A stretch of 49,105 bases of DNA, from IMG/VR virus record IMGVR_UViG_3300003323_000621, positions 72,153 to 121,257 of that record. One strand, given 5' to 3'. Of the stretch, positions 1 through 49,105 are shown piece by piece; within the stretch, counting starts at the first letter, position 1, and each line of letters opens with the position of its first letter. Both the position numbers and the translations under genes were made by a program. Below the pieces are notes generated by a model. It saw nothing but the letters and a program-made list of their open reading frames with translations, did no database searches and was not told the origin of the DNA. Origin of the DNA: a virus. Its lineage: Duplodnaviria > Heunggongvirae > Uroviricota > Caudoviricetes.

Positions 1-2
1 CT

Positions 3-980
3 TTTTGGCAATCATGTAAATCTGGTAAATGGAATATATCAGCTTCTTTTAGAAAAAAGAAATTAGATGAAAATCTTGAATTACAAAAGAATATAATTCT
101 TGATGAATTGAAGAAATATTCTCCTGATGCAAGTATTATTAAAAAATATAAACCTTTACAACATATAATTAATGCTAATGTTTCTTCTAATATAAAAAAG
201 AATAATCTATTAGAAATATCAGTATTTGATTTACATATAGGTAAATTATCTTGGGATGAAGAAACAGGAGAAAATTATGATTCATATATTGCATGTGAAA
301 GATATAAAGCAGCTGTAAGAGATCTTGTAAGTAGAGTGTACAAAGGATCTATAAGTAAGATATTACTACCTATAGGAAATGATATGATTAATGTAGATAA
401 TAAGGCACATACTACAACTGCAGGTACTCCTCAGCATTGTGACTCAAGGTTTACTAAAATGATAAGAACAGCTAAGGATCTTTTAATAGAAGTTATAGAT
501 GAATTATCTTTAATAGCACCAGTAGATGTATTAGTAGTTCCAGGAAATCATGATAATGTAACAATGTTTACACTTGGTGAAATACTAGATGCTTTTTACA
601 GTAAAAATCCTTTAGTATCAATAATTAATGATCCTAAACAGAGAAAATACTATCAATTTGGAGTAAATGGAATTATGTTTACTCATGGTAATGAAGAAAA
701 GCATAATGATTTAGGATTAATATTTGCTACTGAACAACCTCAATTATGGGCAGATACTAAGTTTAGAGAAGCTCATTTAGGACATTTTCATAAAGTAAAA
801 TCTACTAAATATGTAAATATTAATGAAGAAACTGGATTTAAAGTAAGAGTTCTTCCTTCATTAAGTGGTACTGATGCATGGCATCATAGTAAAGGATATA
901 TTTCCAACAAATCAGCAGAAGCTTATTTATGGAATTATGATAGAGGATTAGAAGCTACATTTATACACAATTCAATATAA
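3..980 (+). CDS. Calcineurin-like metallophosphoesterase (5'-truncated; frame is open from the window edge)
   Basis: Motifs DLHIG, GNDMIN, GNHD, FTHG and GHFH form the full metallophosphoesterase set. The frame upstream of the called TTG at 108 stays open back to base 3 (FWQSCKSGKWNISASF...). Confidence 0.85.
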   Translation, partial: FWQSCKSGKWNISASFRKKKLDENLELQKNIILDELKKYSPDASIIKKYKPLQHIINANVSSNIKKNNLLEISVFDLHIGKLSWDEETGENYDSYIACERYKAAVRDLVSRVYKGSISKILLPIGNDMINVDNKAHTTTAGTPQHCDSRFTKMIRTAKDLLIEVIDELSLIAPVDVLVVPGNHDNVTMFTLGEILDAFYSKNPLVSIINDPKQRKYYQFGVNGIMFTHGNEEKHNDLGLIFATEQPQLWADTKFREAHLGHFHKVKSTKYVNINEETGFKVRVLPSLSGTDAWHHSKGYISNKSAEAYLWNYDRGLEATFIHNSI

Positions 981-1663
981 TGACAAATAGAGATATAGTA
1001 AGTAGAGTAAGATCTATGAATAAATTTGTATCAGCAGATAACCTTATCAATGATAGGGTTATTCTTGCTGAACTAAAATCTAAGTCTTCTTTACTAATAA
1101 AGAGAGAAACAAATCTTAGGAGATTATGGCAATCTCCTAATATGTTTACTCCATTTTTATGTATAGAAATGGAAGTAGTTCCATTAGCTGAATGTTGTGA
1201 TTATAAATCACCTTGTAATATAGCTAAATCAAAGAAAAAATTACCTAAGATAGCTGAAGGGATATTTGGATTATTAATTCAAGGAGTATTTAATATAGAT
1301 ACTTCAGAAGAATTTAAATTTACTACAGCAAGAAGATATGCTAACTTACTAAAGTTAAATCTTCCAGGAAGACAAGGATATTATTGGATACAAAATGATC
1401 ACTTATATGCAAGTGATGAAGATGTACAAATGGTATCTATGTTTGCTTATCCTGATGAAGATGTTAATGCTAAAGAATGGAATAAATGTAAAGACAATTC
1501 TGAAGACAATTGTCCTTTAAATCCATTAGATGCTGAATTTAGATGTCCTTCTTATTTAATAGATTCAGTTGTTACTATGACATATGATTCTTTAATGAAA
1601 ACATATTTCAGAATAATTGATGATAAAACTTCAAATAATAAAGATGAACAACTTGCAAGGTAA
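980..1663 (+). CDS. Putative tail tubular/ring protein (crAss-like neck ring family)
   Basis: 227 aa with Cys clusters (ECCDY, CPL, FRCP). It sits just upstream of the IHF-like, ring and muzzle genes, and the sequence style matches crAss-like ring proteins. Confidence 0.6.
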   Translation: MTNRDIVSRVRSMNKFVSADNLINDRVILAELKSKSSLLIKRETNLRRLWQSPNMFTPFLCIEMEVVPLAECCDYKSPCNIAKSKKKLPKIAEGIFGLLIQGVFNIDTSEEFKFTTARRYANLLKLNLPGRQGYYWIQNDHLYASDEDVQMVSMFAYPDEDVNAKEWNKCKDNSEDNCPLNPLDAEFRCPSYLIDSVVTMTYDSLMKTYFRIIDDKTSNNKDEQLAR

Positions 1664-2012
1664 CAATAAATTAACTAATGGTATATATATTACTAGTAAA
1701 ACTAAAGGTATAGAAAGAGCAGAATGGGTTTCTGATGGATTAGCAGAGTATATAAGATATAGACAATCTAAATTTGGATATATAGATAAATTTCTTTTTG
1801 AAGAAAAAGAAGGAATAATGTTTATATCTTTGAATCCTGATTATAAAAGTTATATTGATTCAGAAATAGAATTAGAAGTGGAAAATTCTATTCATGATAA
1901 TTATTATACTGGATTAAGACATTATAATATAGTAGATCCAGGATCTACTCATATGTATCCCCTAGTTACACAAAACAAAAACATAAATTCATATAAATTA
2001 TTTATGAAATAA
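1644..2012 (+). CDS. Hypothetical protein (start uncertain: 1617, 1644 or 1653)
   Basis: The ORF fills the gap between two conserved genes on the coding strand. The ATG at 1644 gives a smaller overlap with the upstream gene than 1617. Confidence 0.6.
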   Translation: MNNLQGNNKLTNGIYITSKTKGIERAEWVSDGLAEYIRYRQSKFGYIDKFLFEEKEGIMFISLNPDYKSYIDSEIELEVENSIHDNYYTGLRHYNIVDPGSTHMYPLVTQNKNINSYKLFMK

Positions 2013-2014
2013 TA

Positions 2015-2488
2015 ATGAGACCAAAAGTAGATTATAGAACTACATCCAAAGATAATTATGAAAAATTCTGTTTAGAGAATTCTAATATAGAAATATCATT
2101 TAAACAATGGAAAGATATATTAGAAAAGTTTTCTGAGAATATTATTGATTATATACTAGAGACAGGTGAAAAAATAAAGCTTCCTTATGGATTGGGTGAT
2201 CTTAGTATAAATAAAAAGAAGCCAAAAAGAACAAAATATTTTCAAGGTAAAGAGTATATAAATTTTGCAATAGATTGGAAGAAAACCAGAGAATTAGGTA
2301 AATATGTATATCACATGAATTATCATTCAGATGGTTTTACATATAGTTGGATATGGTTTAAAGCTAATTGTAGATTTTACCAAAGTGAATTATGGTGGTT
2401 TAGAGCATGTAGGAAAGCTAGTAGGAGTATTAAACCTCAAGTAACAAATAATTCTTATTATGCTCAATTATATAACCAGTGGAAATAA
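2015..2488 (+). CDS. HU/IHF-like DNA-binding protein (crAss-like IHF family)
   Basis: Basic protein with a helical N-half, then GEKIKLPYGLGDLSINKKKP, resembling the HU/IHF 'G..v.l.gfG.f.v' beta-arm. IHF-like genes are characteristic of the crAss tail module. Confidence 0.65.
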   Translation: MRPKVDYRTTSKDNYEKFCLENSNIEISFKQWKDILEKFSENIIDYILETGEKIKLPYGLGDLSINKKKPKRTKYFQGKEYINFAIDWKKTRELGKYVYHMNYHSDGFTYSWIWFKANCRFYQSELWWFRACRKASRSIKPQVTNNSYYAQLYNQWK

Positions 2489-2497
2489 ATAAATAAA

Positions 2498-3397: not shown

Positions 3398-6300
3398 ATG
3401 GCTGAAGAAAGAAGCAATTTACAAGGAAATAATAGTAATACAGTTGTTTCTGCTATTTTTGGTTTGAATTTAGATAATGTTAATCTACAAATCAAAGATG
3501 GACAGCTTACTTATGCACTTAATGCTACTATAGAAGGATTTGATGGTAACATGGTTACTTATCAAAATGAAGAATCTAATATAAAGTGTACAGATTTTCC
3601 TGCTGGATTTAAAGTGATAGGACACTTAATTTTAAGTGAGCAAGATAAAATAGTATTCTTTATTTTTAATGAAGAAACTAAATCTTCTGAAATAGGATTT
3701 GTTGATATTAATACTTGTAAATATTCTAAACTAATTAATGCTGATTGTTTAAATTTTTCAATGCTTCATCCTATACAAGCAAAGTATAGGACTACAGATT
3801 GTACTACACAAATATTTTTTACAGATTTTTACAATCCAAGAAGGTATATTGATCTTAATGAGTTACCTTATAAAAAAGAAGGAGAAAATTGTGATGAACA
3901 AGTTACAAACATAATTGATTGTAATTTAATGCTTGTTCAAAGACAATTCAGTATACCTAATTTATTTGTTACTGAAGTAGTAGGAGAAGGATCTTTAGTA
4001 GAAGGTACTTATCAGTTTACTATTCAATATGCAGATGAATTAGGTAATGGGTTTAGTGATTACCATAGTGTAACTAATCCAGCTTCTATTTTTGCTGGAG
4101 TACAATCAAATAATTTTGATAATATTACATCCAAGGCTGTAAATATTCTTATTGATGGATTAGATAGGACATTTGAATATTATAATTTAGCTGTTATAAA
4201 AACAATTAATAATATTCCTAGTGTGGAGTTAATAGGTACATTTCCTATTAATTCTACCAGAGAAGAATATTTATATACAGGAGTAACTTCTACACAAGAA
4301 CCTCTATCTATAGATGAAATACTCTTAAAAAGAGCTATTTATCCTTATGCAAAGGAAATAGCTACTGTAGATAATGTATTGGTATATGGTAATTTAATTT
4401 CTGATAAAAGAATAAATTATCAAAGTATAGCTAATCAAATAGAACTTCAATGGGAAACATGGAAAGTTCCAGATAATATTTACTCTAAAGGAGAAAGTTC
4501 TGCTAATTTAAGAGGATATATGAGAGATGAAGTATATGCTTTTGAAATAGCATTCTTATTAAGAAGTGGTAAACAAACAGATGGTTTTCATATTCCAGGT
4601 AGAAAATCTAAGGCTTCTGATTTAGAAGTTGTAAACAATGATGATGTTATTTATGAAGAAGACAGTAAATGTGAAATAATTCAAAGAGTAGGTTTACCCA
4701 GATGGAAAGTATATAATACTGGATGTAGGATTGATTATTCTAAACAGTATAAAGACTTTATAAATAGAAATAGTCCTACAACTAATTTAGCTGTTGAATA
4801 TTCATATCACCCTGGACCTTTTCCTAATGATCCAGGTAATCCTCCTGAAGAACCAAACAATACTGATCCTTCTTGTTATACAGGTCCATATGAATATGGA
4901 TGTATGGGATATTATGAGTCTACTGAAGAGTATTCTTGTAATACAGAAATATGGGGAGATTTAGCTGGTGAAAAACAAAGATTTCATAAATTTCCTGATT
5001 GCCTTATATCTCCAATTCATGATGAAAATGGAAGCATATATCCTATAGGTATAAGGATAGATAGTACACAAATTAAAACATTAATTGATAATAGTAACTT
5101 AACTCAAGAAGAAAAAGATAACATAGTAGGATATAAAATTCTTAGAGGTAATAGAGCTAATAATAAATCAGTAGTTGCAAAAGGACTGTTATTTAATGTA
5201 GGAAAATATAATAAAGATACTTCTACTTATTTTTATCCAAATTATCCTTATAATGATTTAAGACCAGATCCTTTCCTAACTAATAAAGATATTAGTAGTG
5301 GTGTTGATTTAGGAGAAGAATTAAATTCTTCTTTTGAAGAAGTAGGTACTGAAGGTTCTAATTTAACTACATTTTATGATGCAGTTATACCAGCTTTTTC
5401 ATGGAAAAATAATAATGATACTATTGTGATACAGTACAATGGTACCTTTAATGGTGATCCTAAGCATTTTAAAAGTTTATATTTATTATTTAATAATATA
5501 GAAATATTTAATAGTAATATATTTTCTACTGATCCCAATGATTCATTTACTCTTATAACAGAATTAAAAAGAGTTGATAGTGCAGCAACTATTCTTATAA
5601 AAAATACTTTAAATATAATAGGTGCTAATCCTAAAACAATTAAGAAAACAATTACAATAAATTCTGTAGCTTTAAATACTCCTAATACAGTAACCTTAAA
5701 AGGTAAGGTTGTAAGAGGATCTTTACTTACTTCTCCTCCACCAGTAGAGGATGGTGAAATAACAGCTCAAGGTTATATAATGGGTTATAGAGCAGCTCCT
5801 AGTATAGCAGAAGATCCTGGGTTATTAAATGGTTTTATTTCTACAGATAGTAAAAAAAGATTTACTTTACATTCACCAGATACTTCATTTTATCAACCAT
5901 TTTTAGGAAATGTTCTTAAGATAGAATCTATAGAACAAGGTAAAAGTATCTCACATTTTGCACAGGTACAAAATCATGCAAGATATAAAATATATACAGA
6001 TAGCTTATTTTTAACTGCAATTGGTGCAGCTGCAGTAATTACTGGTTTATCAAGATGGGTATTAGTAGGTGTATCTAGTGGAGGTACATTAATTGATGGT
6101 AATGCTGCTATTAATACTTATCAAACATTAACATCTATATTCCAGAATCTTGTTCCATATATAAACTATGCTTATCAATTTAACTCTATAGGAAACTATA
6201 ATAAATCTATTAATGTTGATAATAATGGTTCTAAACAAAGATTAATTGATTTATCTTCTTATTTAATCCCAGGTATAGTTGGAGTAGGAGATACTAATTT

Positions 6301-8467
6301 GATTAATAACTATCAAAGAGAATCTTCTGTATATATAAGAACAAATAAATCACTTCCTTTTACACATGAACAAGGAGGGGTTTTAGATGAATCCAGATGG
6401 AATTTAGGATGTCAAGGATTAGGAACTACAAGAGAAACTAATATATCATCTTATTATGCTTCTATAAAAAGAAATATAGCTAATCAATATGGTAGGATGT
6501 ATTCTTATGAAACTATAGATACTGGATTTCAGTATCCTATTAGTTTTACTGGAGTATCCACAGTATTTGGTGGTGATATATTTATTAATAGATTTGGATT
6601 AAAAAGAAAATTACCATTCTTCACTTATAATGGAGTTGGATTAAATGATGGAGCAGATATAGAATATAACAATATATCTAATGTAGGAAATGCTAAGTAT
6701 TGGTATAGTTCTCAAACAAAAGCTGATGGTGGAAGTGGATTTTTATCCAGGTTAGCTGGTATATTATTTGGTACTAAAGTACATGAACTTGATTGTGATA
6801 GATCTTCTTTCTTTTATAGAACAGGTAAGATGTATTTATTTGCTTATGGGTTACCCTATTTTTATACAGAATCTGAAGTTAATGTAGATTTCAGACATGC
6901 AGCTGATTCTCAAATAAGAGACTTTTATCCAAAGAATAATCAATTAGTTATTCCTGATGATTGGTTTCAAGAGAAAAATGTCTCTATTATAAATGATAAT
7001 AGTTATATTTATAACAAAACATATTCTAAACAAAATAAAGAGAACTTATTTACTCATTTAAGAGAAGATTTTAAAGAAGATGAAAGCTGTTATGTTTATT
7101 ATCCTACTAGATTAATATACTCTGATAGAATAACAAATACTAAGAAATCTACTTGGTTATTCTCTAAACCAGCCAACTTCTATGATTTACCTAATATCTA
7201 TGGTAGATTAAGAGGATTAGATGGTCTTGAAAATAATCAGTTATTAGTAAGATTTGAGAATAAAACTCAGATGTATAATGCAATGGTATCTATAGATACT
7301 ACTAATGGTAAATCAGCTTATGTAGGAGGTAATGAATTATTTAGGAATATACCACTTGATTTCTTTGATACAGATGAAGGATATTCTGGATCTAATAATA
7401 GAATGTTACTTAAATCTGAGTTAGGACACCTTTTTGTAGATGAGAAAAGAGGTAATGTATATTTATTAAGTGCAAGTGGTCAAGTAGGATTACAAGATAT
7501 AACTAATGGTTTATCTAAGTGGTTTACACAGAATATGCCATTTGTAATTAATAAGTATTTCCCTAATATAGATATTGATAACTCTTATAATGGAATTGGA
7601 ATTACTGGTGTATGGGATAGTAAATATAATAGATTTATAATAACTAAACTTGATTATGAACCTATAGTAGATAATATAGTATATAATGAAGATACTGGTA
7701 AATTTACTTTAAATGGAAATGTAATAGAGTTATCTGATAGAAGATATTTTTGTAATAAGTCATTTACTTTATCTTATTGTCCAGATACAAAATCTTGGAT
7801 TTCATTTCATTCTTACATACCTAATTTCTATACTCCATATATAGGATCTTTCTTTTCTGGAGTAAATAGTAATATATCTAATATATGGCAACATAATATA
7901 TCTCCTACTAATTATCAAAGATTCTATGGTAAATTGGAACCTTATATATTAGAATATCCAATTAAGTTTGGTTTAGATGATGAAATATTATCTTCTGTAA
8001 AGGATTATGTTACTATATTAGAATACAAAAATGATCAAGATTTCTATGAAGTAAATTATGGAGTATATTTTAATAAAGCAATTATATATAATAATCAACA
8101 GTGCTCAGGAACATTAAATCTTATTCCTAAACCTTTAAATTCTTTAAAAGCTTATTCTACTTATCCAAAGTTAAATACTAATTCTAAGGATATATTAGTT
8201 ACTAAATCTGATAATTTATTTAACTATAATACATTCTGGGATTTAAAGAATGATAATGTAAATGATACTTTCTTTAAGAAGTCTTGTGTAAACAGAACTA
8301 TAGATAAAGAGCTTGATAATTCTGTATTAGACTATTCAAGAATGTCTCATAAAAAAGGTAGAATAAGAGCAAAGAATTTAAGGATAAGACATATACAAGA
8401 TGCTACTGATAAATATAAGTTTGTATCTAAGTATCTTACTATTAGTACTCAAAAATCTATAAAATAA
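3398..8467 (+). CDS. Tail stabilisation / muzzle protein (P22 gp10-like, crAss-like)
   Basis: 1689 aa with beta-propeller-like repeats (IFFTDFYNPRRYIDL; GVWDSKYNRFIITK; WISFHSYIPNFY) and LRGYMRDEVYAFEI. It lies between a ring gene and the cargo genes. Confidence 0.75.
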   Translation: MAEERSNLQGNNSNTVVSAIFGLNLDNVNLQIKDGQLTYALNATIEGFDGNMVTYQNEESNIKCTDFPAGFKVIGHLILSEQDKIVFFIFNEETKSSEIGFVDINTCKYSKLINADCLNFSMLHPIQAKYRTTDCTTQIFFTDFYNPRRYIDLNELPYKKEGENCDEQVTNIIDCNLMLVQRQFSIPNLFVTEVVGEGSLVEGTYQFTIQYADELGNGFSDYHSVTNPASIFAGVQSNNFDNITSKAVNILIDGLDRTFEYYNLAVIKTINNIPSVELIGTFPINSTREEYLYTGVTSTQEPLSIDEILLKRAIYPYAKEIATVDNVLVYGNLISDKRINYQSIANQIELQWETWKVPDNIYSKGESSANLRGYMRDEVYAFEIAFLLRSGKQTDGFHIPGRKSKASDLEVVNNDDVIYEEDSKCEIIQRVGLPRWKVYNTGCRIDYSKQYKDFINRNSPTTNLAVEYSYHPGPFPNDPGNPPEEPNNTDPSCYTGPYEYGCMGYYESTEEYSCNTEIWGDLAGEKQRFHKFPDCLISPIHDENGSIYPIGIRIDSTQIKTLIDNSNLTQEEKDNIVGYKILRGNRANNKSVVAKGLLFNVGKYNKDTSTYFYPNYPYNDLRPDPFLTNKDISSGVDLGEELNSSFEEVGTEGSNLTTFYDAVIPAFSWKNNNDTIVIQYNGTFNGDPKHFKSLYLLFNNIEIFNSNIFSTDPNDSFTLITELKRVDSAATILIKNTLNIIGANPKTIKKTITINSVALNTPNTVTLKGKVVRGSLLTSPPPVEDGEITAQGYIMGYRAAPSIAEDPGLLNGFISTDSKKRFTLHSPDTSFYQPFLGNVLKIESIEQGKSISHFAQVQNHARYKIYTDSLFLTAIGAAAVITGLSRWVLVGVSSGGTLIDGNAAINTYQTLTSIFQNLVPYINYAYQFNSIGNYNKSINVDNNGSKQRLIDLSSYLIPGIVGVGDTNLINNYQRESSVYIRTNKSLPFTHEQGGVLDESRWNLGCQGLGTTRETNISSYYASIKRNIANQYGRMYSYETIDTGFQYPISFTGVSTVFGGDIFINRFGLKRKLPFFTYNGVGLNDGADIEYNNISNVGNAKYWYSSQTKADGGSGFLSRLAGILFGTKVHELDCDRSSFFYRTGKMYLFAYGLPYFYTESEVNVDFRHAADSQIRDFYPKNNQLVIPDDWFQEKNVSIINDNSYIYNKTYSKQNKENLFTHLREDFKEDESCYVYYPTRLIYSDRITNTKKSTWLFSKPANFYDLPNIYGRLRGLDGLENNQLLVRFENKTQMYNAMVSIDTTNGKSAYVGGNELFRNIPLDFFDTDEGYSGSNNRMLLKSELGHLFVDEKRGNVYLLSASGQVGLQDITNGLSKWFTQNMPFVINKYFPNIDIDNSYNGIGITGVWDSKYNRFIITKLDYEPIVDNIVYNEDTGKFTLNGNVIELSDRRYFCNKSFTLSYCPDTKSWISFHSYIPNFYTPYIGSFFSGVNSNISNIWQHNISPTNYQRFYGKLEPYILEYPIKFGLDDEILSSVKDYVTILEYKNDQDFYEVNYGVYFNKAIIYNNQQCSGTLNLIPKPLNSLKAYSTYPKLNTNSKDILVTKSDNLFNYNTFWDLKNDNVNDTFFKKSCVNRTIDKELDNSVLDYSRMSHKKGRIRAKNLRIRHIQDATDKYKFVSKYLTISTQKSIK

Positions 8468-11400
8468 TGCCTGGAGATAAAAAGAAGAAAAATTATAATT
8501 CTAGAGATCCTAGAACAATGGCAGAGATACAGAAAGAAAATATAAATTCTATTCCAAATTCTCAATGGAAAAATGCTATTCCTGTATATTTACCTAATGA
8601 TGTAGTAGTTAAAAAAGGAAAAGCAGTAAAGGTTCCTGCACCAAAACCAAATGAATATTCTCCTGGTAGTTCAGAAACCTTGGATAATTTATCTTCAAAT
8701 GTATTTTCATATTTTCTAGGAGTTAAAAATGATGGATTAATTCCTTCTCCTTATAGGCCAACTAATGCTAAGGATCCAAAAAGTAAATACTATACTTATA
8801 AAAACATAAAAAATGACATAAAAGAAGATTTAATAGGAGATTCTTATAATGAAAGAATAGCTAATGCTGAGAAAGTATATGCTTCTGGAAATCCAAACTA
8901 TAATCCAATTGTTATATCCAAGAATAGATCTTTTGATGATTACTATAATTATTTAAGTAATAGTAAAAGAAAGGTTAAAATGTCAGGAAATAGTATTAAT
9001 TTAGGACATTATAATCTTTCAGCAGGAGAAGATGAAAGAGGAAGGTACATAAGTGCATATGATAAATATGATTGGAACTTATTAGAAGGTGCTGGATTTA
9101 ATGGTAATAGTTGGGAAACATATGATAGAATATATGATGATGAATGGGATAAAATTCAAAAACCTACTAAAAAAGAAGATGGAGGAGCTGTAGGAGATCC
9201 TATTAAAAAATCTAAAGGAAATACTTCTACAAGTGTTCCTATAACCCTTTATGGTCCTACTGATACTGTTAAGAAAGGAAATAAAACAGTAAAAGTAAAA
9301 AGACCCAGTATTATTGGATCTCTTCCTGTTCAACCTTCTATAAATAATCCTATAGAATTTTTAAATTCATATTATAATAGTGATGAATTTAAAAGAAAAT
9401 CTGGATCATTTTATGATGCTAATATGTCCTATTATAAAGCAGGAGATAGAAGCTATGATGTAGAATATGTAGATAGTAGTAATGAAGGAAGCAATGCTGT
9501 ACCTGCTACAAAACTTGTTACATCAGATATGTTTGGAAAAGGTAGGGGTAAAGATCCTAGTATTATATTAGATAGAAGTCAGGCAAAAAGAAGAGGAATG
9601 AATCTTGAGAATGATATTCTTCCACATGAATATTCTCATACTACCAGAGAATTAAGTGCTGATGATGAAGCAAAGTTTATAGAAAAAAATAGAGATTTTT
9701 TAGTTAAAGATTTTTATAGAAGATATTTAGAAGATATAAATACAACACCTACTGAACATAATTTTTCAAGATGGTCTCAGTCTGTTCTTAATCATGAACA
9801 ACTTCCTAGTGAGAACTATTCTGATATGAATACTCTTAGATGGATTCTGTATAAGAACAATATATATGATGCCAGAAAGGGACCTTTGACTAAGGAACAA
9901 TTACAGAAAGCTATTGAAGATCCTAATATAAAAGATAATTTCATGTTTAAAAGATTATTAAAATCTTTTTCAATTGATGATATTGTAGAACTTAATAATA
10001 CAATAGCTTATAACAATCAAAAAAATAATACACCAATGGCAAGAAATGGATTATCTATGAAAAGAAAAAATTATATGAGTTTTGACCCTGGTGGTAATCC
10101 TAGTCCACAGGAAAAGTATTATCAATCAAGTGCTAGATTAAGTCATTATAAAAATATTCTTAATGATAAATTAAAAGCTAAAAATCCAGAAGCTTTTAGT
10201 AATTACTTTAAAGGACTTGTAGATCTTAGAAGATCAGGTAAAACTAATGAAGCTGATAAGTATGTTCAATCTACAGCATATAATGAATATTTAACTCCTC
10301 AAGAAGTTAAATCTACATTAGGAGATAATGATTATAATGATTATTTATCTAGTATTAGAGAAGTAAATGCTTATGATGTAGCTCAAGGTAAACAACCATT
10401 ATATGGTAATGTAGAAGGAGAAACAAATCTTAATGCATTAAATTATGGTAGAAGGTTTGCTTCTTTACAAATAACTCCTAGTTTATCTGTTTTTAATAAA
10501 GCTTCAGGTAAAAACTATAAGAGGAATTATACATATAATCCTGTAACAAGACAAGTAGATGTTAAAGAAGAAGGAGATGTATCATTAAGACCCAACTATG
10601 TTTCTTCAATAACCCCTACTAATGAAGTAGTAAATAACATGGATGATGGTGGTGTACTTGCATTTAAAGTACCACAAATTCCTATACACACAGAAATGAT
10701 GGAAGGTCCTTTAGATGGACTTGAAAAAGATGGTATTGATTATTATGCTAAATCAGGTATACATATTAAACCTGAAAATAGAGGTAAGTTTAATGCTCTT
10801 AAAAAAAGAACTGGTAAAACTACAGAAGAACTTACTCATTCTAAAAATCCTTTAACTAGAAAAAGAGCTATATTTGCTCAGAATGCTAAAAAGTGGAATA
10901 AGGGTAAGAAAAAAGATGATGGTGGTATTATAGAAGATACATATTTAAATCCTCTTAATTATGATCCTACATTAGATTATTATGAAGAGTATGCAAATAA
11001 TCCTAATCTAATGTTAGATGAAGAAGCTGAATTTGGTACTTCATTACCTGATCCTACAAAACCTAAAATAGATGGAAGTATAACTAATCCTAATAATGTA
11101 GGAGGTTATTTATGGGATCCAATGTCACAAGCAGTTCCTACTCCTTTTGAACAAAATAATTCTGGAGTTATAGATACCAGAACTAATCAACAATTCTTTA
11201 CTGTAGATCCTAATCAACAAGGACCTCAGTTTAATGGAGATTTAAATCAAGATAGTAATCAGCAAAATAATCCTTTATTTAGAATAGGAGAAGAAGATAT
11301 ACAAAATGGATTATTAGGATTAGCTTATGCTACAGGAAATCTTAATAGACCAAGGTCTAATAGAATGCCTTTATTAACATCTTATAATCCTTATGCTCAA

Positions 11401-13653
11401 GGAACAGGTTCTCAAGCTATAATGAAGCATGGTGGAAGATTTAAAGCTAACTCAGGAGTAAATATTAACTCAGGTGGAAGTATGTCTCAAATATCAAATC
11501 CTGATGAGTCTAATCCAGTATTTAAATTTAATGGTAATAGTCATGAACAAGGAGGTATCAAGATAGACTATAATGGTAATCCTGTAGAAGTAGAAGGTGG
11601 TGAAACTGCTTATATGGATAATGGTGGTAACTTCAATGTATTTGGTAATATGAGAGTTCCAGGTACAAAGATGAACTTTGATACTATGGGAGAGAAGTTA
11701 GCTAAAGAAGAGCAAAAATATAACAAAGGAAAATATAAAGGAGCTGATATAGTTAATGAAGCTGATTTAGAATCTAAAAATCTTTATGAGAGATATAGAT
11801 TTAATGCTGGAAAAGTAATGTTAGAATCTAATGAGCAGGCTGAAAGAAATATTGGTGAAAGAAAAGAAAATTTAGTAGCTCTTCAAAATGCAATGTTACT
11901 TACAGCAAATACATTTGGAGAAGATCCTAAAAAAATGTTCAATGGTAAAGCAAAGAATGGAGCATCTTTTGGAGCTTATGATCCTTATAAGAGAGTACCT
12001 TATGATGCAGCTAAACCTATGCCTAAAGATCCTTATAAACCTAACTTTCCAATAGCCAAGTTTGATAATGGTGGTAGAACTAACAATTATACTGGAAGTA
12101 ATAAATCAAGTGATTTTATGCAACCTTTATTTACACAACAATCATTAAATTCTGAAGCTTCTTTTGTAGATCCTATGCCAATTACATTGGATAATGGTGG
12201 AGGAATAAAAGATAAATTTGCTAAGTTAAAACAACAAACAGAAGCAGCTTTAGCTAAAAAATATCCTGGTAAGAAGATAACTGTAGTTCCTTCTTATGAT
12301 AGAGATATATCTACACAAAGAGGATTAATGGCTTCAAAGAAATCTAAAACTCCTGTATCACTTCATAACCTTGGAGCAGCTGGAGACTATAATATATATG
12401 TTGATGGAAAGTTAGTACAAGACCCTCAAGTATATAAAGATACCTTATGGAAAGAAGCTAATAATCTTGGATTACATTCTTTAGGAGATTGGGATCCTGC
12501 TCATATATCAGCAGTAAAAGAAGGTAAAGGTACAGCATTTAGTACTTTATTAAGTGCAAATCCAGAGATAAGAGATACAGATCAGTATAAAAATACAGTT
12601 TCTTATCTTAAAGATCTTATTGATAAAAAGCAAGCTACTAACAGAGAAATATCTGCTTATAATCAATTAACAGGATCTAAAATAGCTATTCCTAAAGGAA
12701 GAGGATATATAGATAATACAAGAGTATTAGATACTAGTATTCCCAGTGGACAGGTAGCTTTTGGTGAAACTTATATTAATCAAAATCTTACAGATCTCCC
12801 TAATATAGAACAATTACAGGAGACTAATATTCCTAATATTAGTACTAATATAGAAGCTAATGTTCCTAATACTAATAGTTCTACAATAAATAATTCTATT
12901 CCAGACTTTAAAAAACCTGTACCTGGAAAATCAAGAGATATAAGAAATCCTTTATCAATTGATCAATATTTTCCAGAAGCTTATGTATTAGCTACTAATA
13001 GAGAACAACCTGTTCAGGCACAGTATTACACTCCAGAGTTATTCCAACCTTATGAAGTATCTTTCCAAGATTTAAGAAATCAAAATCAAGCTGATTTTAA
13101 TGCTACTACAAGACAATTGGTTAATGCTGGAAGATATGATTTATTATCTACTGTAGCTGCTGATAAGTATAGAGCTAATGAATCTATAACTGCAGGTCAG
13201 GAATTTAGAACTAATCAAGGAATAGCTAATGATGTATATAATAAAAATATAGGATTATTAAATCAAGCAGAGCTTACTAACTTACAAATAGCAGATTTAC
13301 AAGCTGATAGACAAGCTCAAGCTTATGCTAATACTCAGGATAGAACTATAGATGCTATAACTTCATTATCTGCTAAATCTGCTCAGAATAAATTAGAGAC
13401 TAAAACAGCTAATTTATACTCACAAATGATGAAAAACTTTAGCTATAATGAAAAGAATGGAAAAATAGAGTTTAATCCTGATAGTATAACAGGACCTGTT
13501 ATAACTAATCCTAATGGAACTACAACTGAATATATAGATCCTAATAAGAAAATCATAGATTATGAGTATGATTCTAAAGGAAGAAGAACTAGAAAAGTTG
13601 AAACAGAACCTCAATATAAAGTTCAAAAAGCTAGATGGAGATTATTTGGATAA
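8467..13653 (+). CDS. Modular virion cargo/ejection protein with a zincin (HEYSH) module and an M15-family peptidase module
   Basis: HEYSH at 9625-9639. IHIKPENRGKF motif from 10759. SHEQGG...VEVEGGE motif near 11540-11610. SLHNLGAAGD (12358-12387) plus WDPAH (12490-12504) match the M15 SxHxxGxAxD...DxxH pattern. Confidence 0.7.
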   Translation: MPGDKKKKNYNSRDPRTMAEIQKENINSIPNSQWKNAIPVYLPNDVVVKKGKAVKVPAPKPNEYSPGSSETLDNLSSNVFSYFLGVKNDGLIPSPYRPTNAKDPKSKYYTYKNIKNDIKEDLIGDSYNERIANAEKVYASGNPNYNPIVISKNRSFDDYYNYLSNSKRKVKMSGNSINLGHYNLSAGEDERGRYISAYDKYDWNLLEGAGFNGNSWETYDRIYDDEWDKIQKPTKKEDGGAVGDPIKKSKGNTSTSVPITLYGPTDTVKKGNKTVKVKRPSIIGSLPVQPSINNPIEFLNSYYNSDEFKRKSGSFYDANMSYYKAGDRSYDVEYVDSSNEGSNAVPATKLVTSDMFGKGRGKDPSIILDRSQAKRRGMNLENDILPHEYSHTTRELSADDEAKFIEKNRDFLVKDFYRRYLEDINTTPTEHNFSRWSQSVLNHEQLPSENYSDMNTLRWILYKNNIYDARKGPLTKEQLQKAIEDPNIKDNFMFKRLLKSFSIDDIVELNNTIAYNNQKNNTPMARNGLSMKRKNYMSFDPGGNPSPQEKYYQSSARLSHYKNILNDKLKAKNPEAFSNYFKGLVDLRRSGKTNEADKYVQSTAYNEYLTPQEVKSTLGDNDYNDYLSSIREVNAYDVAQGKQPLYGNVEGETNLNALNYGRRFASLQITPSLSVFNKASGKNYKRNYTYNPVTRQVDVKEEGDVSLRPNYVSSITPTNEVVNNMDDGGVLAFKVPQIPIHTEMMEGPLDGLEKDGIDYYAKSGIHIKPENRGKFNALKKRTGKTTEELTHSKNPLTRKRAIFAQNAKKWNKGKKKDDGGIIEDTYLNPLNYDPTLDYYEEYANNPNLMLDEEAEFGTSLPDPTKPKIDGSITNPNNVGGYLWDPMSQAVPTPFEQNNSGVIDTRTNQQFFTVDPNQQGPQFNGDLNQDSNQQNNPLFRIGEEDIQNGLLGLAYATGNLNRPRSNRMPLLTSYNPYAQGTGSQAIMKHGGRFKANSGVNINSGGSMSQISNPDESNPVFKFNGNSHEQGGIKIDYNGNPVEVEGGETAYMDNGGNFNVFGNMRVPGTKMNFDTMGEKLAKEEQKYNKGKYKGADIVNEADLESKNLYERYRFNAGKVMLESNEQAERNIGERKENLVALQNAMLLTANTFGEDPKKMFNGKAKNGASFGAYDPYKRVPYDAAKPMPKDPYKPNFPIAKFDNGGRTNNYTGSNKSSDFMQPLFTQQSLNSEASFVDPMPITLDNGGGIKDKFAKLKQQTEAALAKKYPGKKITVVPSYDRDISTQRGLMASKKSKTPVSLHNLGAAGDYNIYVDGKLVQDPQVYKDTLWKEANNLGLHSLGDWDPAHISAVKEGKGTAFSTLLSANPEIRDTDQYKNTVSYLKDLIDKKQATNREISAYNQLTGSKIAIPKGRGYIDNTRVLDTSIPSGQVAFGETYINQNLTDLPNIEQLQETNIPNISTNIEANVPNTNSSTINNSIPDFKKPVPGKSRDIRNPLSIDQYFPEAYVLATNREQPVQAQYYTPELFQPYEVSFQDLRNQNQADFNATTRQLVNAGRYDLLSTVAADKYRANESITAGQEFRTNQGIANDVYNKNIGLLNQAELTNLQIADLQADRQAQAYANTQDRTIDAITSLSAKSAQNKLETKTANLYSQMMKNFSYNEKNGKIEFNPDSITGPVITNPNGTTTEYIDPNKKIIDYEYDSKGRRTRKVETEPQYKVQKARWRLFG

Positions 13654-13687
13654 TACATTCTAACTTAATAAATTAATAATTTCTAAT

Positions 13688-13726
13688 AAGATTTGTCAGT
13701 ATTTAATTAAAGTATTGACAAATCTT
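13688..13726. terminator. Inverted repeat AAGATTTGTCAGTA-N11-TATTGACAAATCTT: intrinsic terminator or operator
   Basis: 14-bp arms with one G-U pair, followed by TTATCTTT. It lies in the only sizeable gap between cargo genes. Confidence 0.55.
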
Positions 13727-13727
13727 T

Positions 13728-13737
13728 TATCTTTGTA
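13728..13737 (+). promoter_or_regulatory. Possible Bacteroidota -7 element (TATCTTTG) upstream of the 889-aa cargo gene
   Basis: Matches TAnnTTTG about 20 nt before the ATG at 13756. There is no TTG at the canonical 17-23 nt spacing. Confidence 0.35.
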
Positions 13738-13755
13738 TTCTATAACATAATTTAG

Positions 13756-16425: not shown

Positions 16426-16439
16426 TAATTAAAAGATTT

Positions 16440-29207: not shown

Positions 29208-29219
29208 AATTATAACTTA

Positions 29220-33677: not shown

Positions 33678-33718
33678 AAGGTAAATAATAATAGATAATA
33701 CAATTTAAAATATTTTTA

Positions 33719-36700: not shown

Positions 36701-36955
36701 TTAACTAATTCAGCTACATTAAACTTTCCTAGTACACCAGGTGGTGATGATGCTGACTTAACTATTACAGTTACAGGAGCTGCTGATGGAGATCCTGTTG
36801 CTCTTGGTATTCCAAATGCTGCTGTATTACCAGAATCTATGTATATGGCATGGGTTTCTGCTGCTAATACTGTAACTGTAAGATTTATAAATTTCTCTTT
36901 ATCTGCTCAAGATCCTCCAAGTGCAGTTTTTAAAGTAAGTGTGTCCAAATTTTAA
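33719..36955 (+). CDS. Tail fibre / receptor-binding protein
   Basis: Gly/Thr/Ser/Asn-rich with a Cys-rich N-terminus. It has mosaic fibre modules (GTTGQVLTKNSNTNYDVSW; LFWDSTNNRLGIGT; GRIGIGTSSP) and a C-terminal ITVTGAADGD...WVSAANTVTVR domain. Confidence 0.75.
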   Translation: MPIKKCSPAKVKCPACTGSSTNPSCPITLPGTCVNYTGSPITGPGINVNDNFNTVTNKLANYSLNNQKVIDANSGVFLNDTTKTIKLGLNTADPLLQEGSIELGRLCYITQGEDIAAGKQIGVLFQGTGKKLDIIGLRGMGLPAAGYSIEVEDTGALVSMVANDNNTGVPTTGGMQMVFSTVGDMEVTDGINSKGLQYSGDYESNFVPRSLVTKQYVDAIVGGGANANNGLSLNSGFVQLGQLVNTIGNPALVTNNREIPMNNGLTVSFKNISNSFTTSINPGNISVTKDTTVSNPSLEFYDSNIGTVFSQYLTSTGFVFDYDTLPVITLDAFNNIQFHGYPNTRNNGTATKALYTGSSGELLLGNFPVESANNGLSVSSNIAVLGQTIGAVGNPAILTSNREIPTGGFNTVFTGNGRIGIGTSSPSTTLHVETTSNTSGVLITSTSSTPSFLLKVRSYYQGIVNQAINNAGLSGLTLRDAADDPNTDFNLMFQPSGKSLYYQLAPGVSATGYSMLWCKNDQNLYGRLLIDTGRWQFGTLGPVGFTFADNGYTLQVVGNLFVNTFMRLNPQASAPASPTKGMLYVNNSTNQFLGYDGTTWVDLGATGGGGSVTNVSGTTNRITVTSPTTTPVIDIASTYVGQNSITTLGTISTGVWQGTAIATTYGGIPTAGTTGQVLTKNSNTNYDVSWTTVTGTGTVTNFIFTNGNGFSGSVSSSTTTPTLSLTTSLTTGSVPFIAAGGALSQDNNNLFWDSTNNRLGIGTNTPISRETVRTDGLGAYTTTTTQNSSGLSLVNNTAAISGTQQASPALLLRGFGWGTTAATSQSVDWRLVNLPTQGTVPASSLRLQFSLNGATYSEPFLFNSTGQFNATGNIVAGASSTFAFTTRTNLSAPVDGNLLLRNNANTNFGLIQLGGSTSAFPAIKRNTTGIDIRLADDSAYTSITSSNITLDSQSGAATRLSTISTTGQVQALANGTDTQIMAIVGGTPTWSTLRLTNSATLNFPSTPGGDDADLTITVTGAADGDPVALGIPNAAVLPESMYMAWVSAANTVTVRFINFSLSAQDPPSAVFKVSVSKF

Positions 36956-38999: not shown

Positions 39000-39926
39000 A
39001 TGGGCTGTAATATAACAGGAAATATACAGGGATCAGTAGTAGATAACATATTACTTCTTAATAAGAAGATGGATAAGGTATGGAAAAGAATATCTTATAT
39101 ACAGAATCATTCTGGTGGTGGTGGAACTGTAACAGGAGCTAATCAAGGTCTTTCTTTATCAGGTACAAATGTTGTATTAGGACAAACTTTAGGTGATATT
39201 AATAATCCTGCAATGATTAGTGGAGCAAAGGAAATTCCTTTTGATACAACAGGTCTTTCTTATTTAACATTTAATTATGCAGGAGCTTTTCCAGGTCAAA
39301 CAATAATACAACCAGCTGTTATACAAATACAAGGAAATTCAGAACAAAGTTCAATTCCTGCTTTAAGATTAATAGATAGTGCAAATTTATCTACATTTCT
39401 TACTTTATCTATAAGTGGTGATACAGCTTCTATATCTAAAAGTGGAGGATCTCCTGTGCTTCTTTTTCATGATGAAGGTACTATAACAATATCTCCTTCA
39501 TTTGGTCCTAGTGATGTAGGATTATGGATTCAAAATAGAAAAATAAGAATTGATGAAGGTAATGGAGGAGTAGGAAAAGTACTTATGTCTGATGCTGATG
39601 GTATAGGTACTTGGGCAAATCCTAATATAAATGTACTTTCTAGTAACAATTCTTTACCTTTACCTACTACTACTAATACATATCACACTTACACAGGTAC
39701 GGGATCAGGAACTTGGACATTACCTTTAATAACAATAGGATTAGAAGGATATAAAGTAACTATTATAAATGCATCTTCTGATATATTAATAGTAGCTACT
39801 TCAGGATCTGATATGATAATAGATCCTACAGGAACTTCTACTAATAGTTATACAATAGCATCTAAAGGTGTAATTACATTGTATAATAACTCTCTTAACT
39901 ATGTAGTTATACCAACTACTCCTTAA
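39000..39926 (+). CDS. Tail-fibre-like protein
   Basis: Shares a 34-aa module with the 1078-aa fibre. Contains GGVGKVLMSDADGIGTW and a C-terminal TWTLP...GYKVTIIN beta domain typical of fibre tips. Confidence 0.65.
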   Translation: MGCNITGNIQGSVVDNILLLNKKMDKVWKRISYIQNHSGGGGTVTGANQGLSLSGTNVVLGQTLGDINNPAMISGAKEIPFDTTGLSYLTFNYAGAFPGQTIIQPAVIQIQGNSEQSSIPALRLIDSANLSTFLTLSISGDTASISKSGGSPVLLFHDEGTITISPSFGPSDVGLWIQNRKIRIDEGNGGVGKVLMSDADGIGTWANPNINVLSSNNSLPLPTTTNTYHTYTGTGSGTWTLPLITIGLEGYKVTIINASSDILIVATSGSDMIIDPTGTSTNSYTIASKGVITLYNNSLNYVVIPTTP

Positions 39927-40959: not shown

Positions 40960-41250
40960 ATGTTCAAAGTTTTACAGGGGATCTTTGACAGAAATATATT
41001 AGAGTGGATATCAAGAAATAGAAGTACATTTGTATTAATTGTTCTATTTTTTGGTAATATATATCAATTCTATATTGGTTCTGAGAAGGATAAAAGATAT
41101 GAAGAAAACATGATGAAAATGAATGATAAACTTGAAGAAGCAAATAAGCTTTCTCTTCATTATGAGAGAGATAGATCTAATACACTAGAATCATTATTAC
41201 ATGAACTAGTTATAAAATATAATAATCGTGATTCACTATCTAAAAAATAA
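40960..41250 (+). CDS. Single-TM membrane protein with coiled-coil tail (lysis-cluster candidate)
   Basis: TFVLIVLFFGNIYQFYIG helix followed by a charged heptad region. Confidence 0.55.
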   Translation: MFKVLQGIFDRNILEWISRNRSTFVLIVLFFGNIYQFYIGSEKDKRYEENMMKMNDKLEEANKLSLHYERDRSNTLESLLHELVIKYNNRDSLSKK

Positions 41251-44977: not shown

Positions 44978-44992
44978 TATAACTAATAATTA

Positions 44993-46132: not shown

Positions 46133-46467
46133 ATTATTCTATCTTTAATTTTATTGAAAATTATTTCGATCTGTGGATATATATCCCTTAAAATTTTATT
46201 TGATTTTGATAAATTTATTTCTTTATTATGTATTCTTTCTCTTACTATCTTATTTACTTCATGATGGAGTTCTTCTAATTCTTCTTCTATAAAGTCATCA
46301 TTAGGATTAATACCATGTACAGATAATAATTTATCCTCCATAACCTTTATCTTCTCCATTAAAAAGTAATTTCTCTCACTAATACTTTTTATTTCTTGTT
46401 GTCTCCATTTAAGATGACATTTAGCTTTATCTAGTTTTGCTTTTTTTATTAAAGTATATCCAAACAT
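46129..46467 (-). CDS. Hypothetical coiled-coil protein
   Basis: 112-aa helical ORF whose TGA overlaps the ATG of the ATPase gene (ATGA). Confidence 0.65.
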   Translation of the reverse strand: MFGYTLIKKAKLDKAKCHLKWRQQEIKSISERNYFLMEKIKVMEDKLLSVHGINPNDDFIEEELEELHHEVNKIVRERIHNKEINLSKSNKILRDIYPQIEIIFNKIKDRII

Positions 46468-46469
46468 AT

Positions 46470-46904
46470 TTATTTGTTTGTGGATCCAAATCCTCCTGAT
46501 CCTCTTTCAGTATTAGATAATTCTTCTATTTCAGTAAAAGGTATCTGTTCTACTTTAAGTAATACTCCTTGAGCAATTCTATCTCCATTATGTATAATAA
46601 AGGAATTAGAACTATCTGTATTGTATAATATAACTCCAATTTCTCCTCTATAATCAGAATCTATAGTACCAGGACTATTAAGAACCATAATACCATTTTT
46701 AAGAGCTAATCCACTTCTTGATCTAATATCAAGTTCATATCCAACAGGTATTTCCATACTTAATCCTGTTTTTATTAACTTTCTTTCTCCTGGAGCTACA
46801 ATATAACTTCCTACTGCATGAAAATCAAACCCTGCAGATCCTTTAGTTTGATATGTTGGAATTATAGCTTCTTCAGTTAATTTTTTAATATATATATTCA
46901 TCAT
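46470..46904 (-). CDS. dut: Trimeric dUTPase
   Basis: All five motifs are present: AGFDF, RSRSGLA, GTIDSDYRGEIGV, GDRIAQ and RGSGGFGST. Confidence 0.97.
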   Translation of the reverse strand: MMNIYIKKLTEEAIIPTYQTKGSAGFDFHAVGSYIVAPGERKLIKTGLSMEIPVGYELDIRSRSGLALKNGIMVLNSPGTIDSDYRGEIGVILYNTDSSNSFIIHNGDRIAQGVLLKVEQIPFTEIEELSNTERGSGGFGSTNK

Positions 46905-46913
46905 TTTATCTTA

Positions 46914-47555: not shown

Positions 47556-47758
47556 TACTTAATATTTTTGTAAATATATACTGTATCACATACACCATTT
47601 ATACAAGTTTCTTTTATTTGTGGAATTAATGGTGTTTTAGTGATAACATCATCTGATATAAATAACAAATCTACTAAGCCATATCCTACAAAAGCTACTA
47701 TTATTCCAAGTATTAAAAAAGCTATAAATGCTTCAGTAAAATTAAAACTTCCCATCAT
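47555..47758 (-). CDS. Small single-TM membrane protein
   Basis: FIAFLILGIIVAFVGYGLVDLLFI helix and a C-terminal CINGVCDTVYIY. Confidence 0.65.
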   Translation of the reverse strand: MMGSFNFTEAFIAFLILGIIVAFVGYGLVDLLFISDDVITKTPLIPQIKETCINGVCDTVYIYKNIK

Positions 47759-47764
47759 AATTTT

Positions 47765-48031
47765 CTATTTAATATTTTCTTCTGGATAAGCTGAAAGAAT
47801 TGATTCTTTATCTATAAAAGCATCCATTGCTCCATAATCTGGTTGATAAGCTTCAGCTACAGCTCTTTTAGTAGCAGCTTCAAGAGCAGCTTTTACATGA
47901 AGTTTGGTAAATTCTGTTAATGCTGTCATAAAATCTTCTCTATCTATAAGATATTTAGGATCACCCTCTTCAAATTGATAAAGATTAGAATATTTATTAA
48001 ATAACTCTTTTATTGTAGGTATCTTTTCCAT
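47765..48031 (-). CDS. Hypothetical protein, tandem paralog B
   Basis: MEKIPT...FTKLHVKAAL...ILSAYPEENIK. Confidence 0.75.
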   Translation of the reverse strand: MEKIPTIKELFNKYSNLYQFEEGDPKYLIDREDFMTALTEFTKLHVKAALEAATKRAVAEAYQPDYGAMDAFIDKESILSAYPEENIK

Positions 48032-48315
48032 TATTTTATATTTTCTTCAGGATATGCAGTTAAAATGAATTCTCTAGGTGCTACAAAGTAGAATCCTGCT
48101 TTTAAATCTTCATAATCATGTGATAATTTGTATGTAAAGACAGTTTTCTCAGCTACTGATTTGATAGCTGCCTTTACATGGAGTTTAGCAAATTTTATCA
48201 TTATTTTAGAAATATCTTCTTTTAGAATACAAGCTTCCATATTTCCAGGAAGAGTTTCTATAAAAGAGTAATTATTATTAGATATAAAATCTTCAGCTGT
48301 TGGAATTTTTTCCAT
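48031..48315 (-). CDS. Hypothetical protein, tandem paralog A
   Basis: MEKIPT...FAKLHVKAAI...ILTAYPEENIK. Confidence 0.75.
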   Translation of the reverse strand: MEKIPTAEDFISNNNYSFIETLPGNMEACILKEDISKIMIKFAKLHVKAAIKSVAEKTVFTYKLSHDYEDLKAGFYFVAPREFILTAYPEENIK

Positions 48316-48478
48316 CTTCTAAATTTTTAAAGGCTGTTTTAAGCATCTCAATATACCATTCTGCTCTTTCTTTAGTATCTACAGGATGTAATCTAAATGT
48401 TTGTACTCCTATAGTAAAGGTAGGTATAAAAGGATATTCTTCATCTAATCCTTTCTTTATATTATATATTATTTCCAT
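48293..48478 (-). CDS. Hypothetical protein
   Basis: 61-aa ORF with a 1-nt start/stop overlap upstream and a short overlap downstream. Confidence 0.6.
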   Translation of the reverse strand: MEIIYNIKKGLDEEYPFIPTFTIGVQTFRLHPVDTKERAEWYIEMLKTAFKNLEDGKNSNS

Positions 48479-48813
48479 TATAATAAGTCTCTAACTTTTG
48501 TTACATCAAATAGTCTAATACAACTAATAGTATGAATTCCACCTTCAAAATAAGGACACAAGTTATTAAACAAATCTATTTGATCTTCTGTTAAAAGATC
48601 TTTATATAGTTCATTTACATTTCCATCAACAAAATCTGATGCAGGCCAATTATGTTTAGACTTACACTTTTTAATAATTTTTATTATAGGTTTTAACTTT
48701 TCTAATTGAGCATCTGATATTTTATTAACTGAATGTACATAATCAGCATCATTTGTATCTGCTTCTATAATTAAATAGTTCATATATGTATCTTTTAATG
48801 AAAATGTCCACAA
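48478..48813 (-). CDS. Hypothetical protein
   Basis: 111-aa ORF. The start may be the internal ATG (MNYLIIEADTNDADY). Confidence 0.65.
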   Translation of the reverse strand: MWTFSLKDTYMNYLIIEADTNDADYVHSVNKISDAQLEKLKPIIKIIKKCKSKHNWPASDFVDGNVNELYKDLLTEDQIDLFNNLCPYFEGGIHTISCIRLFDVTKVRDLL

Positions 48814-49076
48814 GGACCTTTTATTGCAATTCCATAATTACTTTTTTGAACTCCTCTTCCTGCATAAGCCCATTGATCCTCCTCAAACTCATCTCCTTCT
48901 TTCACATATCCAAGAGCATCAGGAGATATTTCACCAATTTTCTTATAGCACTCTTCCAATGGGAACCAGAAATTTATACCATCATCATGAAACCAAATCA
49001 ACATTTTCTTAGGAAAATAGTTTTCACCTGATCCCATTTCAATCTTTGTACATATATGCTCTTTCCACTCATTCAA
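48795..49076 (-). CDS. Hypothetical protein
   Basis: 93-aa ORF on the coding strand of the - block. Confidence 0.6.
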   Translation of the reverse strand: MNEWKEHICTKIEMGSGENYFPKKMLIWFHDDGINFWFPLEECYKKIGEISPDALGYVKEGDEFEEDQWAYAGRGVQKSNYGIAIKGPCGHFH

Positions 49077-49105
49077 ATTCCCTACCTGTATATCTCTACT
49101 ACAGA

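Follow-up and report, generated by a model that had tools for sequence, protein, structure and literature searches.

Near-total loss of the CG dinucleotide from a complete crAss-like phage genome and its closest relatives

The DNA analysed here (the window) is a stretch of 49,105 bp that forms the right-hand part (genome positions 72153-121257) of a complete 121,257-bp phage genome, the single contig of IMG/VR record IMGVR_UViG_3300003323_000621, referred to below as G000. In IMG/VR the contig is classed as viral and as having direct terminal repeats; its CheckV completeness is 100%. The feature under study is the near absence of the dinucleotide CG. From a G+C content of 28.7% (6,339 C and 7,739 G), 999 CG were predicted for the window, and only 3 were observed, at positions 39700, 41227 and 46167. 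This corresponds to a symmetrised observed-to-expected ratio (O/E, or rho) of 0.003, with positions 1-39699 lacking CG altogether. For the whole of G000 the count was 26 versus approximately 2,400 predicted (rho 0.011). No other dinucleotide in the window was comparable: the second most depleted was AC/GT at 0.82, and the ratios for GC (1,003 copies), TG/CA and AG/CT were 0.99, 1.00 and 1.33, respectively. The tetranucleotide GATC was also normal, with 188 copies versus 195 predicted by a Markov model. An earlier inspection of the letters by eye (the sequence-only reading) had listed the same three CG sites and had described GC and GATC as abundant; the computed counts matched the sites exactly and agreed for both words.

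The major capsid protein of G000 matched PF23898 (Crass_capsid, E 9e-33) and the portal matched PF16510 (P22_portal). In PHROGs, matches were obtained for the large terminase protein TerL (phrog_6681), the portal (phrog_6547) and the capsid (phrog_11589), and further for a DNA polymerase, ribonucleotide reductase and helicases. With a crAss-type capsid, a P22-like portal and a crAss-type large terminase module present, G000 is a crAss-like podophage. The nearest cultured relative by TerL was Leptolyngbya phage Lbo-JY46 (38% identity), and the identity to gut Crassvirales and to Cellulophaga and Flavobacterium phages was 22-30%. No near-identical DNA was matched in the phage collection. The window contains a block of six giant-protein open reading frames (ORFs; 889-4255 aa) in which no Pfam domain was found, and Pfam searches left a further 34 proteins (early, island and giant) almost entirely without annotation. 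The 716-aa DNA polymerase (L002:6220-8367, minus strand) matched phrog_1252 at E 2e-139 and no Pfam family at E 1e-3.

The depletion was found in every sequence context of G000, for which 154 ORFs were called (93% coverage). Only 5 of the 1,306 arginine codons were CGN, the remaining 1,301 being AGA or AGG, and NCG codons totalled 5; CGN and NCG codons had both been judged nearly absent by eye. Where a codon ending in C meets one beginning with G, 11 CG were counted versus approximately 550 predicted from the position-specific composition (O/E 0.02), and among pyrimidine-ending codons C was chosen in 0.2% of cases before G and in 11% before other bases. Noncoding DNA held 5 CG versus 134 predicted. 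The five tRNA genes (Arg-UCU, Met, Leu-UAA, Asn and Trp) and the 421-nt tmRNA gene held none, versus approximately 31 predicted from the C and G content of these genes. In none of the ten NCGN context classes did the ratio exceed 0.02. Since tRNA and tmRNA genes were purged together with all codon contexts, the constraint was deduced to act on the nucleic acid rather than on decoding. The 26 residual CG of G000 were scattered singletons in all codon positions, and no functional motif was found around them; TCGT/ACGA was over-represented, accounting for 14 of the 26. The three that lie in the window are listed in Table 1 together with the other features of the stretch.

Table 1. Features of the window (positions counted from its first base)
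Feature	Position	Strand	Details
CpG-purged stretch	1..49105		3 CG versus 999 predicted; right end of a complete crAss-like genome
Six giant virion/ejected-protein genes	3398..36955	+	1689, 1728, 889, 4255, 1485 and 1078 aa; zero CG
Residual CG no. 1	39700..39701	+	Positions 2-3 of an ACG (Thr) codon in a 308-aa ORF (39000-39926); genome 111852; context ACGG
Single GATATC of the window	41007..41012		Genome 113159; one of two in G000 versus 41 predicted
Residual CG no. 2	41227..41228	+	CGT Arg codon in a 96-aa ORF (40960-41250); genome 113379; context TCGT
Residual CG no. 3	46167..46168	-	Codon junction ATC|GAA in a 112-aa ORF (46129-46467); genome 118319; context TCGA
dUTPase gene	46470..46904	-	PF00692, E 4.5e-31; sole nucleotide-metabolism gene in the window; no base modification

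Codon and amino-acid composition did not account for the loss. When synonymous codons were permuted within each gene, so that both the protein and the codon counts (already free of CG within codons) were kept, 200 shuffles gave 161±10 CG (minimum 138) in the window genes versus 3 observed, and 414±16 in the genes of G000 versus 21 observed. Furthermore, phages of similar third-position G+C content (phi14:2, Lbo-JY46, cr1_1 and 6H) used CGN for 14-44% of their arginine codons and had junction O/E values of 0.70-1.08. Low G+C content and codon usage were therefore ruled out as the cause, and the earlier opinion that low G+C is no explanation was borne out. A sequencing or assembly artefact, including a misread modified base, was also rejected, the pattern being present in independent assemblies, different samples and cultured isolates. 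Misreading would, in addition, have broken conserved proteins at C|G codon junctions.

TerL homologues were numerous, many of them on contigs of 110-130 kb. In 80 IMG/VR loci with TerL 39-50% identical to that of G000, rho(CG) was 0.18-0.53. A single-protein TerL scan of IMG/VR gave no relative, and the closer relatives were taken as partial loci from public assemblies. Of these, L087/88 (TerL 68%; two runs, 22,064 bp combined) and L089/90 (TerL 66%; 22,061 bp) contained 0 CG; 12 and 9 tRNA genes, respectively, lay within the CG-free sequence of L087/88 and L089. L112 (TerL 66%; 16,488 bp) contained 3, and L085/86 (TerL 82%) had rho values of 0.11-0.13. On the TerL tree, G000 formed a clade with L085/86, L087/88, L089 and L112 at 99% support; the sister clade had rho values of 0.67, 0.70, 0.30, 0.30 and 0.10, and the next outgroup 0.30.

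In L085, a 3.7-kb insertion missing from G000 held 32 of the 50 CG, the core having approximately 8 CG in 13 kb. Within G000 itself, ORFs shorter than 300 aa had a rho of 0.021 versus 0.0023 for those of at least 300 aa, a ninefold difference (p = 2e-5). All five clade members are purged, and recently gained DNA is not yet cleaned: the CG-carrying island of L085 and the enrichment of CG in small ORFs of G000 indicate that new DNA arrives with CG and is purged later. The insertion (L085:5425-9130) adjoins the terminase module and carries ORFs of 1,015 and 209 aa without Pfam match, at a G+C content of 0.33-0.39; it also holds most of the single-nucleotide polymorphisms between the near-identical samples L085 and L086 (99.8% identical).

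The age of the purge was judged from six structural genes, at four-fold degenerate sites whose encoded amino acid was identical. Between G000 and the clade members, the identity of the third base was 0.52-0.56, versus 0.46-0.48 if randomised. Synonymous sites are thus almost saturated and yet no CG has been regained, from which it was deduced that the purge is maintained and not passively inherited.

The same near-total purge was observed in some distant crAss-like phages, namely crAss001 (rho 0.03), DAC15 (0.03), FpV4 (0.067) and the uncultured IAS virus (0.075), in which CGN made up 0-5% of arginine codons and junction O/E was 0.03-0.11. Their TerL proteins are only 25-29% identical to that of G000. 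Other crAss-like phages were not purged, including phi14:2 (0.49), phi17:2 (0.46), an Azobacteroides phage (0.68), cr1_1 (0.66) and cr130_1 (0.83). As phages such as phi14:2 and cr130_1 lie between the purged ones, the trait has been gained or lost several times. In contrast to G000, crAss001 retains 18 CG in tRNA genes; they lie in its tRNA array (L095:1683-5807), make up 18 of the 44 CG of the first 50 kb and are often in the context TCGA.

The test of host composition was made with these cultured analogues and with rpoB samples. The hosts of crAss001, DAC15 and FpV4 are Bacteroides intestinalis, B. thetaiotaomicron and Flavobacterium psychrophilum, respectively. Phage B40-8, a siphovirus of Bacteroides fragilis and thus of the same host genus as crAss001 and DAC15, had a rho of 1.17, and 6H, a temperate phage of FpV4's host species, had a rho of 0.95. 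In 34 Bacteroidota genomes, each sampled only by the 4.5 kb of its rpoB locus, rho was 0.70-1.45, with a median of 1.17. Four crAss-like contigs in Bacteroidota metagenome-assembled genomes (MAGs) were 2-5 times more depleted than the rpoB of the same MAGs, although binning is weak evidence of a host. Since phages of the same host genus or species and Bacteroidota rpoB are normal, the purge does not reflect host composition, nor is it common to all AT-rich phages and hosts of the Bacteroidota, the comparison that the sequence-only reading had proposed. The purge is real, independent of codons and flanks, clade-wide, old, still maintained and not a copy of host composition. The long-term, CG-specific pressure supposed in that reading is supported, the purge being common to a clade of 99% support whose synonymous sites are nearly saturated.

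The mode of loss was deduced from the replacements. TG/CA, the expected product of deamination, showed no excess (1.00 in the window, 1.04 in G000 and 0.96-1.11 among the purged genomes). At eleven conserved arginine columns of TerL, 54 of the 55 codons in the purged clade were AGA or AGG, while L092, L113 and L007 used mostly CGN. The change from CGN to AGR requires a first-position C-to-A transversion; deamination would lead to Cys, Trp, stop, His or Gln instead. Gains were seen for AG, CT and TG, which are the synonymous escapes permitted by the genetic code, and are not a mutational signature. We infer from the lack of TG/CA excess and from AGR at conserved arginines that the CG loss is due to selection rather than mutation. 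The route through deamination of 5-methylcytosine (5mC) that had been offered earlier is not supported, given both observations and the normal CG content of phages from the same host genus or species.

No gene of the phage accounted for the loss. In the complete genome no match was found to the methyltransferase families PF00145, PF01555, PF02086 and PF05869 (C5, N4/N6, D12 and Dam), to PF00303 (thymidylate synthase/hydroxymethylase) or to PF01702 (TGT/DpdA). The only nucleotide-related genes found in the search for base modification were those for dUTPase, ribonucleotide reductase and uracil-DNA glycosylase. The six-family search being empty, a phage-encoded methylase or base-modification pathway was rejected, and with it the earlier proposal that such a gene might lie outside the window; as far as known families tell, the CG loss appears not to be encoded by the phage through methylation or modification. 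Pfam matches in G000 included uracil-DNA glycosylase, dUTPase, a weak PD-(D/E)XK and Endonuclease_7, and nothing CG-reading was found among the matched domains. The Endonuclease_7 gene encodes an HNH-type protein of 131 aa (genome 48397-48792, L003:8397-8789, plus strand, Pfam E 1.3e-23) on the strand opposite to its neighbours. It was present in G000, L087, L089 and L112 and absent from the sampled windows of L085 and the sister clade. The family is common in Mycobacterium and Gordonia phages, whose hosts are G+C-rich. A role as a CG-specific nuclease was rejected because of this wide occurrence, its tracking of the purged members being taken as coincidence, and the gene is probably a mobile or resolvase gene.

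Ordinary restriction-site avoidance was also present and served as a contrast. GATATC, the EcoRV-type site, occurred twice in G000 (window 41007-41012 and genome 35278, L002:15278) versus 41 predicted, and it was at the predicted level in every sampled relative, which suggests from sequence counts a restriction-modification (R-M) system of that specificity in G000's own recent host. Also low in G000 were GGTACC (1 versus 10.7), GAGCTC (1 versus 8.5) and CTAG (O/E 0.49), the other 10 of the 11 CG-free four-base palindromes being at 0.78-1.08. In freshwater IMG/VR relatives (L014-L084), CCGG had an O/E of 0.01 and CCGA/TCGG of 0.08, with ACGA, ACGC and ACGT at approximately 0.6. This is classical avoidance of an HpaII/MspI-type site, unlike the context-free purge. 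Such avoidance is known from T7-like and Bacillus phages, which avoid palindromes, and from Staphylococcus phage K, which has lost GATC. The purge resembles these cases in that a lytic phage without methyltransferase has lost a short word through synonymous changes, and G000 avoids GATATC besides. It differs in that the word is of two bases, is removed with all flanks and is kept out over deep divergence. Classical avoidance being site-specific and fast-changing, and the CG purge context-free and conserved, the comparison speaks against a sum of ordinary R-M systems and points to one constant reader of CG, whether of host or of phage origin.

The most likely agent, in our tentative judgement with somewhat less than an even chance of being the right one, is a putative host-encoded, restriction-like CG reader that acts on incoming or replicating phage DNA. 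Of the candidates named in the sequence-only reading, a CG-recognising host defence is the one left that would fit the data. The lineage would be under continuing purifying selection against every CG, whatever the flanks, and the phage would escape the putative host factor by deleting its target rather than by modifying its DNA. Escape without change of protein would proceed by CGN to AGR, NCG to NCH and NNC|G to NNT|G, and the phage tRNA genes (Arg-UCU, Leu-UAA and others) would fit the AT-rich replacement codons. Newly acquired DNA would come in with CG and then be cleaned. A restriction-like activity of the host was preferred because each CG removed brings an incremental benefit, because the phage has no methyltransferase match and because B40-8, which retains CG, carries two annotated methyltransferase genes. 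Several points weigh against it. We know of no restriction enzyme or bacterial defence with bare two-base CG specificity. Ordinary avoidance is fast-changing, GATATC being lost only in G000 and CCGG only in the freshwater relatives, whereas the purge has persisted over deep divergence, for which a constant cause within the phage would be about as good a fit. Finally, reading of DNA and reading of RNA are inseparable here because CG is self-complementary and nearly all phage DNA is transcribed.

Such a phage-intrinsic cause would be a CG-acting enzyme of the phage's own, for example a nuclease that degrades host DNA, for which a CG-free genome is self without any modification. This was considered unlikely. 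It would account for the stability of the purge across a deep clade in which ordinary avoidance varies by genome, and for its recurrence in a number of crAss-like lineages when other phages that share a host genus or species with them lack it. The distribution of the Endonuclease_7 gene described above could also be read in its favour; however, that distribution may simply follow phylogeny, and a family so common in phages of G+C-rich hosts is not CG-specific. The scanned early genes and the giant ejected proteins yielded no further nuclease or CG-binding domain. Moreover, a CG-cutting enzyme gained while hundreds of CG remain would be lethal, and a gradual route is hard to picture.

Reading of RNA, in which a host ribonuclease or sensor would recognise CG in phage transcripts, was given an equally low standing. 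The purge of tRNA and tmRNA genes in addition to mRNAs is in keeping with it, and in G000 the purge was five times deeper in the late structural block than in the early one (p = 3e-4), a difference that might follow expression. However, within the early block the large replication genes were about as purged as the structural genes (rho 0.0046, versus 0.0248 for small early ORFs; p = 0.09). With large early genes clean, gene age explains the gradient better than expression does. Intergenic spacers are purged too, and no CG-specific bacterial RNase or sensor is known to us. The model for this idea is the CpG suppression of vertebrate viruses under ZAP, which acts on RNA, and TLR9, which acts on DNA, and the likeness is that synonymous deletion of CG implies a reader of CG as foreign. 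The case of G000 differs in having a bacterial host, to which vertebrate sensors are not applicable. Vertebrate TLR9 as the agent was rejected, since B40-8, a phage of the gut, has a normal CG content (rho 1.17).

A pooled effect of conventional R-M systems was judged to be less probable still. The host population would carry many CG-containing sites, and removal of CG would delete them all together; CG occurs in 23 of the 64 six-base and in 5 of the 16 four-base palindromes by our own count. The phage does lack a methyltransferase match and does show classical avoidance (GATATC, 2 versus 41; CTAG, 0.49), its freshwater relatives avoid CCGG specifically (0.01), and CG is under-represented as an avoided word should be (O/E 0.003 and 0.011; 161±10 in shuffles versus 3). 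However, flanks are irrelevant to the loss, all ten NCGN classes being equally empty (at or below 0.02), the non-palindromic ones included, and CG-free four-base palindromes, with one exception in 11, are near expectation. In addition, the purge is conserved across the clade where avoidance of specific sites is not, and the residual CG in partly purged relatives already points to no recognition-site bias.

Least probable of all was hypermutation, by host CpG methylation with 5mC deamination or by a context-specific deaminase or polymerase bias, with CG itself unselected: depletion uniform over the flanks would suit an M.SssI-type CG methylase and the more distant relatives (rho 0.2-0.5) do show a TG/CA excess of approximately 1.2, but the purged genomes show none, AGR at conserved arginines is unreachable by deamination, structured RNA genes are clean as well, no phage methylase was matched, the temperate phage and the siphovirus from the same host species or genus are CG-normal, and an O/E of 0.00-0.01 is well under the methylation-driven equilibrium, which in vertebrates is roughly 0.2. 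The CpG decay known from vertebrates and from Mollicutes (M.SssI/M.MpeI-type methylases) is similarly genome-wide and flank-independent. It is unlike the present case in that G000 has no TG/CA excess, in that CGN arginine codons are replaced at conserved sites and in that the depletion is 20-100 times deeper; nor is there a methylase in the phage, and among the cultured analogues the deficit is not shared by other phages from the host species or genus in question.

Full-text literature searches returned no paper that describes CpG loss in crAss-like phages, and the paper on crAss001, searched by term, does not mention it. The purge can be seen as a form of motif avoidance with three distinctive traits: the word has only two bases, its reader is not known to us and it is conserved over deep divergence. 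That CG has been kept out of more than 100 kb, tRNA and tmRNA genes included, during full synonymous turnover implies a strong, constant and as yet unnamed reader of CG. No bacterial counterpart of a ZAP- or TLR9-type CG sensor is known to us. It is possible, although doubtful, that Bacteroidota or other bacteria possess an undescribed immunity factor against bare CG (either a two-base restriction activity or a prokaryotic equivalent of ZAP or TLR9) from which several crAss-like lineages have escaped independently, or alternatively that the phages wield a CG-directed weapon to which a CG-free genome is self. The same signature is present in the tractable pairs DAC15/B. thetaiotaomicron and crAss001/B. 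intestinalis, so that the reader can be searched for directly. If found, it would represent a new way in which bacteria or phages tell self from non-self and could help to explain the persistence of crAss-like phages; in practice, DNA for delivery into Bacteroidota could come to be designed by a rule on its CG content.

Some further observations concern the host and the relatives of G000. TerL relatives of the group with approximately 40% identity were found in MAGs labelled Sediminibacterium, Cytophagales and Chitinophagaceae, binning again being weak evidence. A search for the host by GroEL found nothing, and one by ribonucleotide reductase matched only mixed MAGs. In the sister clade, L113:1-7222, just upstream of the terminase module, encodes an M4 peptidase with a Por_Secre_tail domain, a CarboxypepD_reg protein and a 528-aa HEPN protein. 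The Por_Secre_tail is a tail for type IX secretion and suggests that L113 infects a member of the Bacteroidota; the domain was not found in G000. The TerL homologues P0031, P0070 and P0075 (1,035-1,092 aa) were enlarged by intein/homing-endonuclease domains (PF14890, PF14528 and PF05204). Lastly, L106 (contig_1; 120,283 bp, 33% G+C), from a MAG labelled Rickettsiales, encodes a ribonucleotide reductase 58% identical to that of G000 and has a rho(CG) of 0.21; the contig is apparently that of a large related phage which was binned with bacterial DNA.

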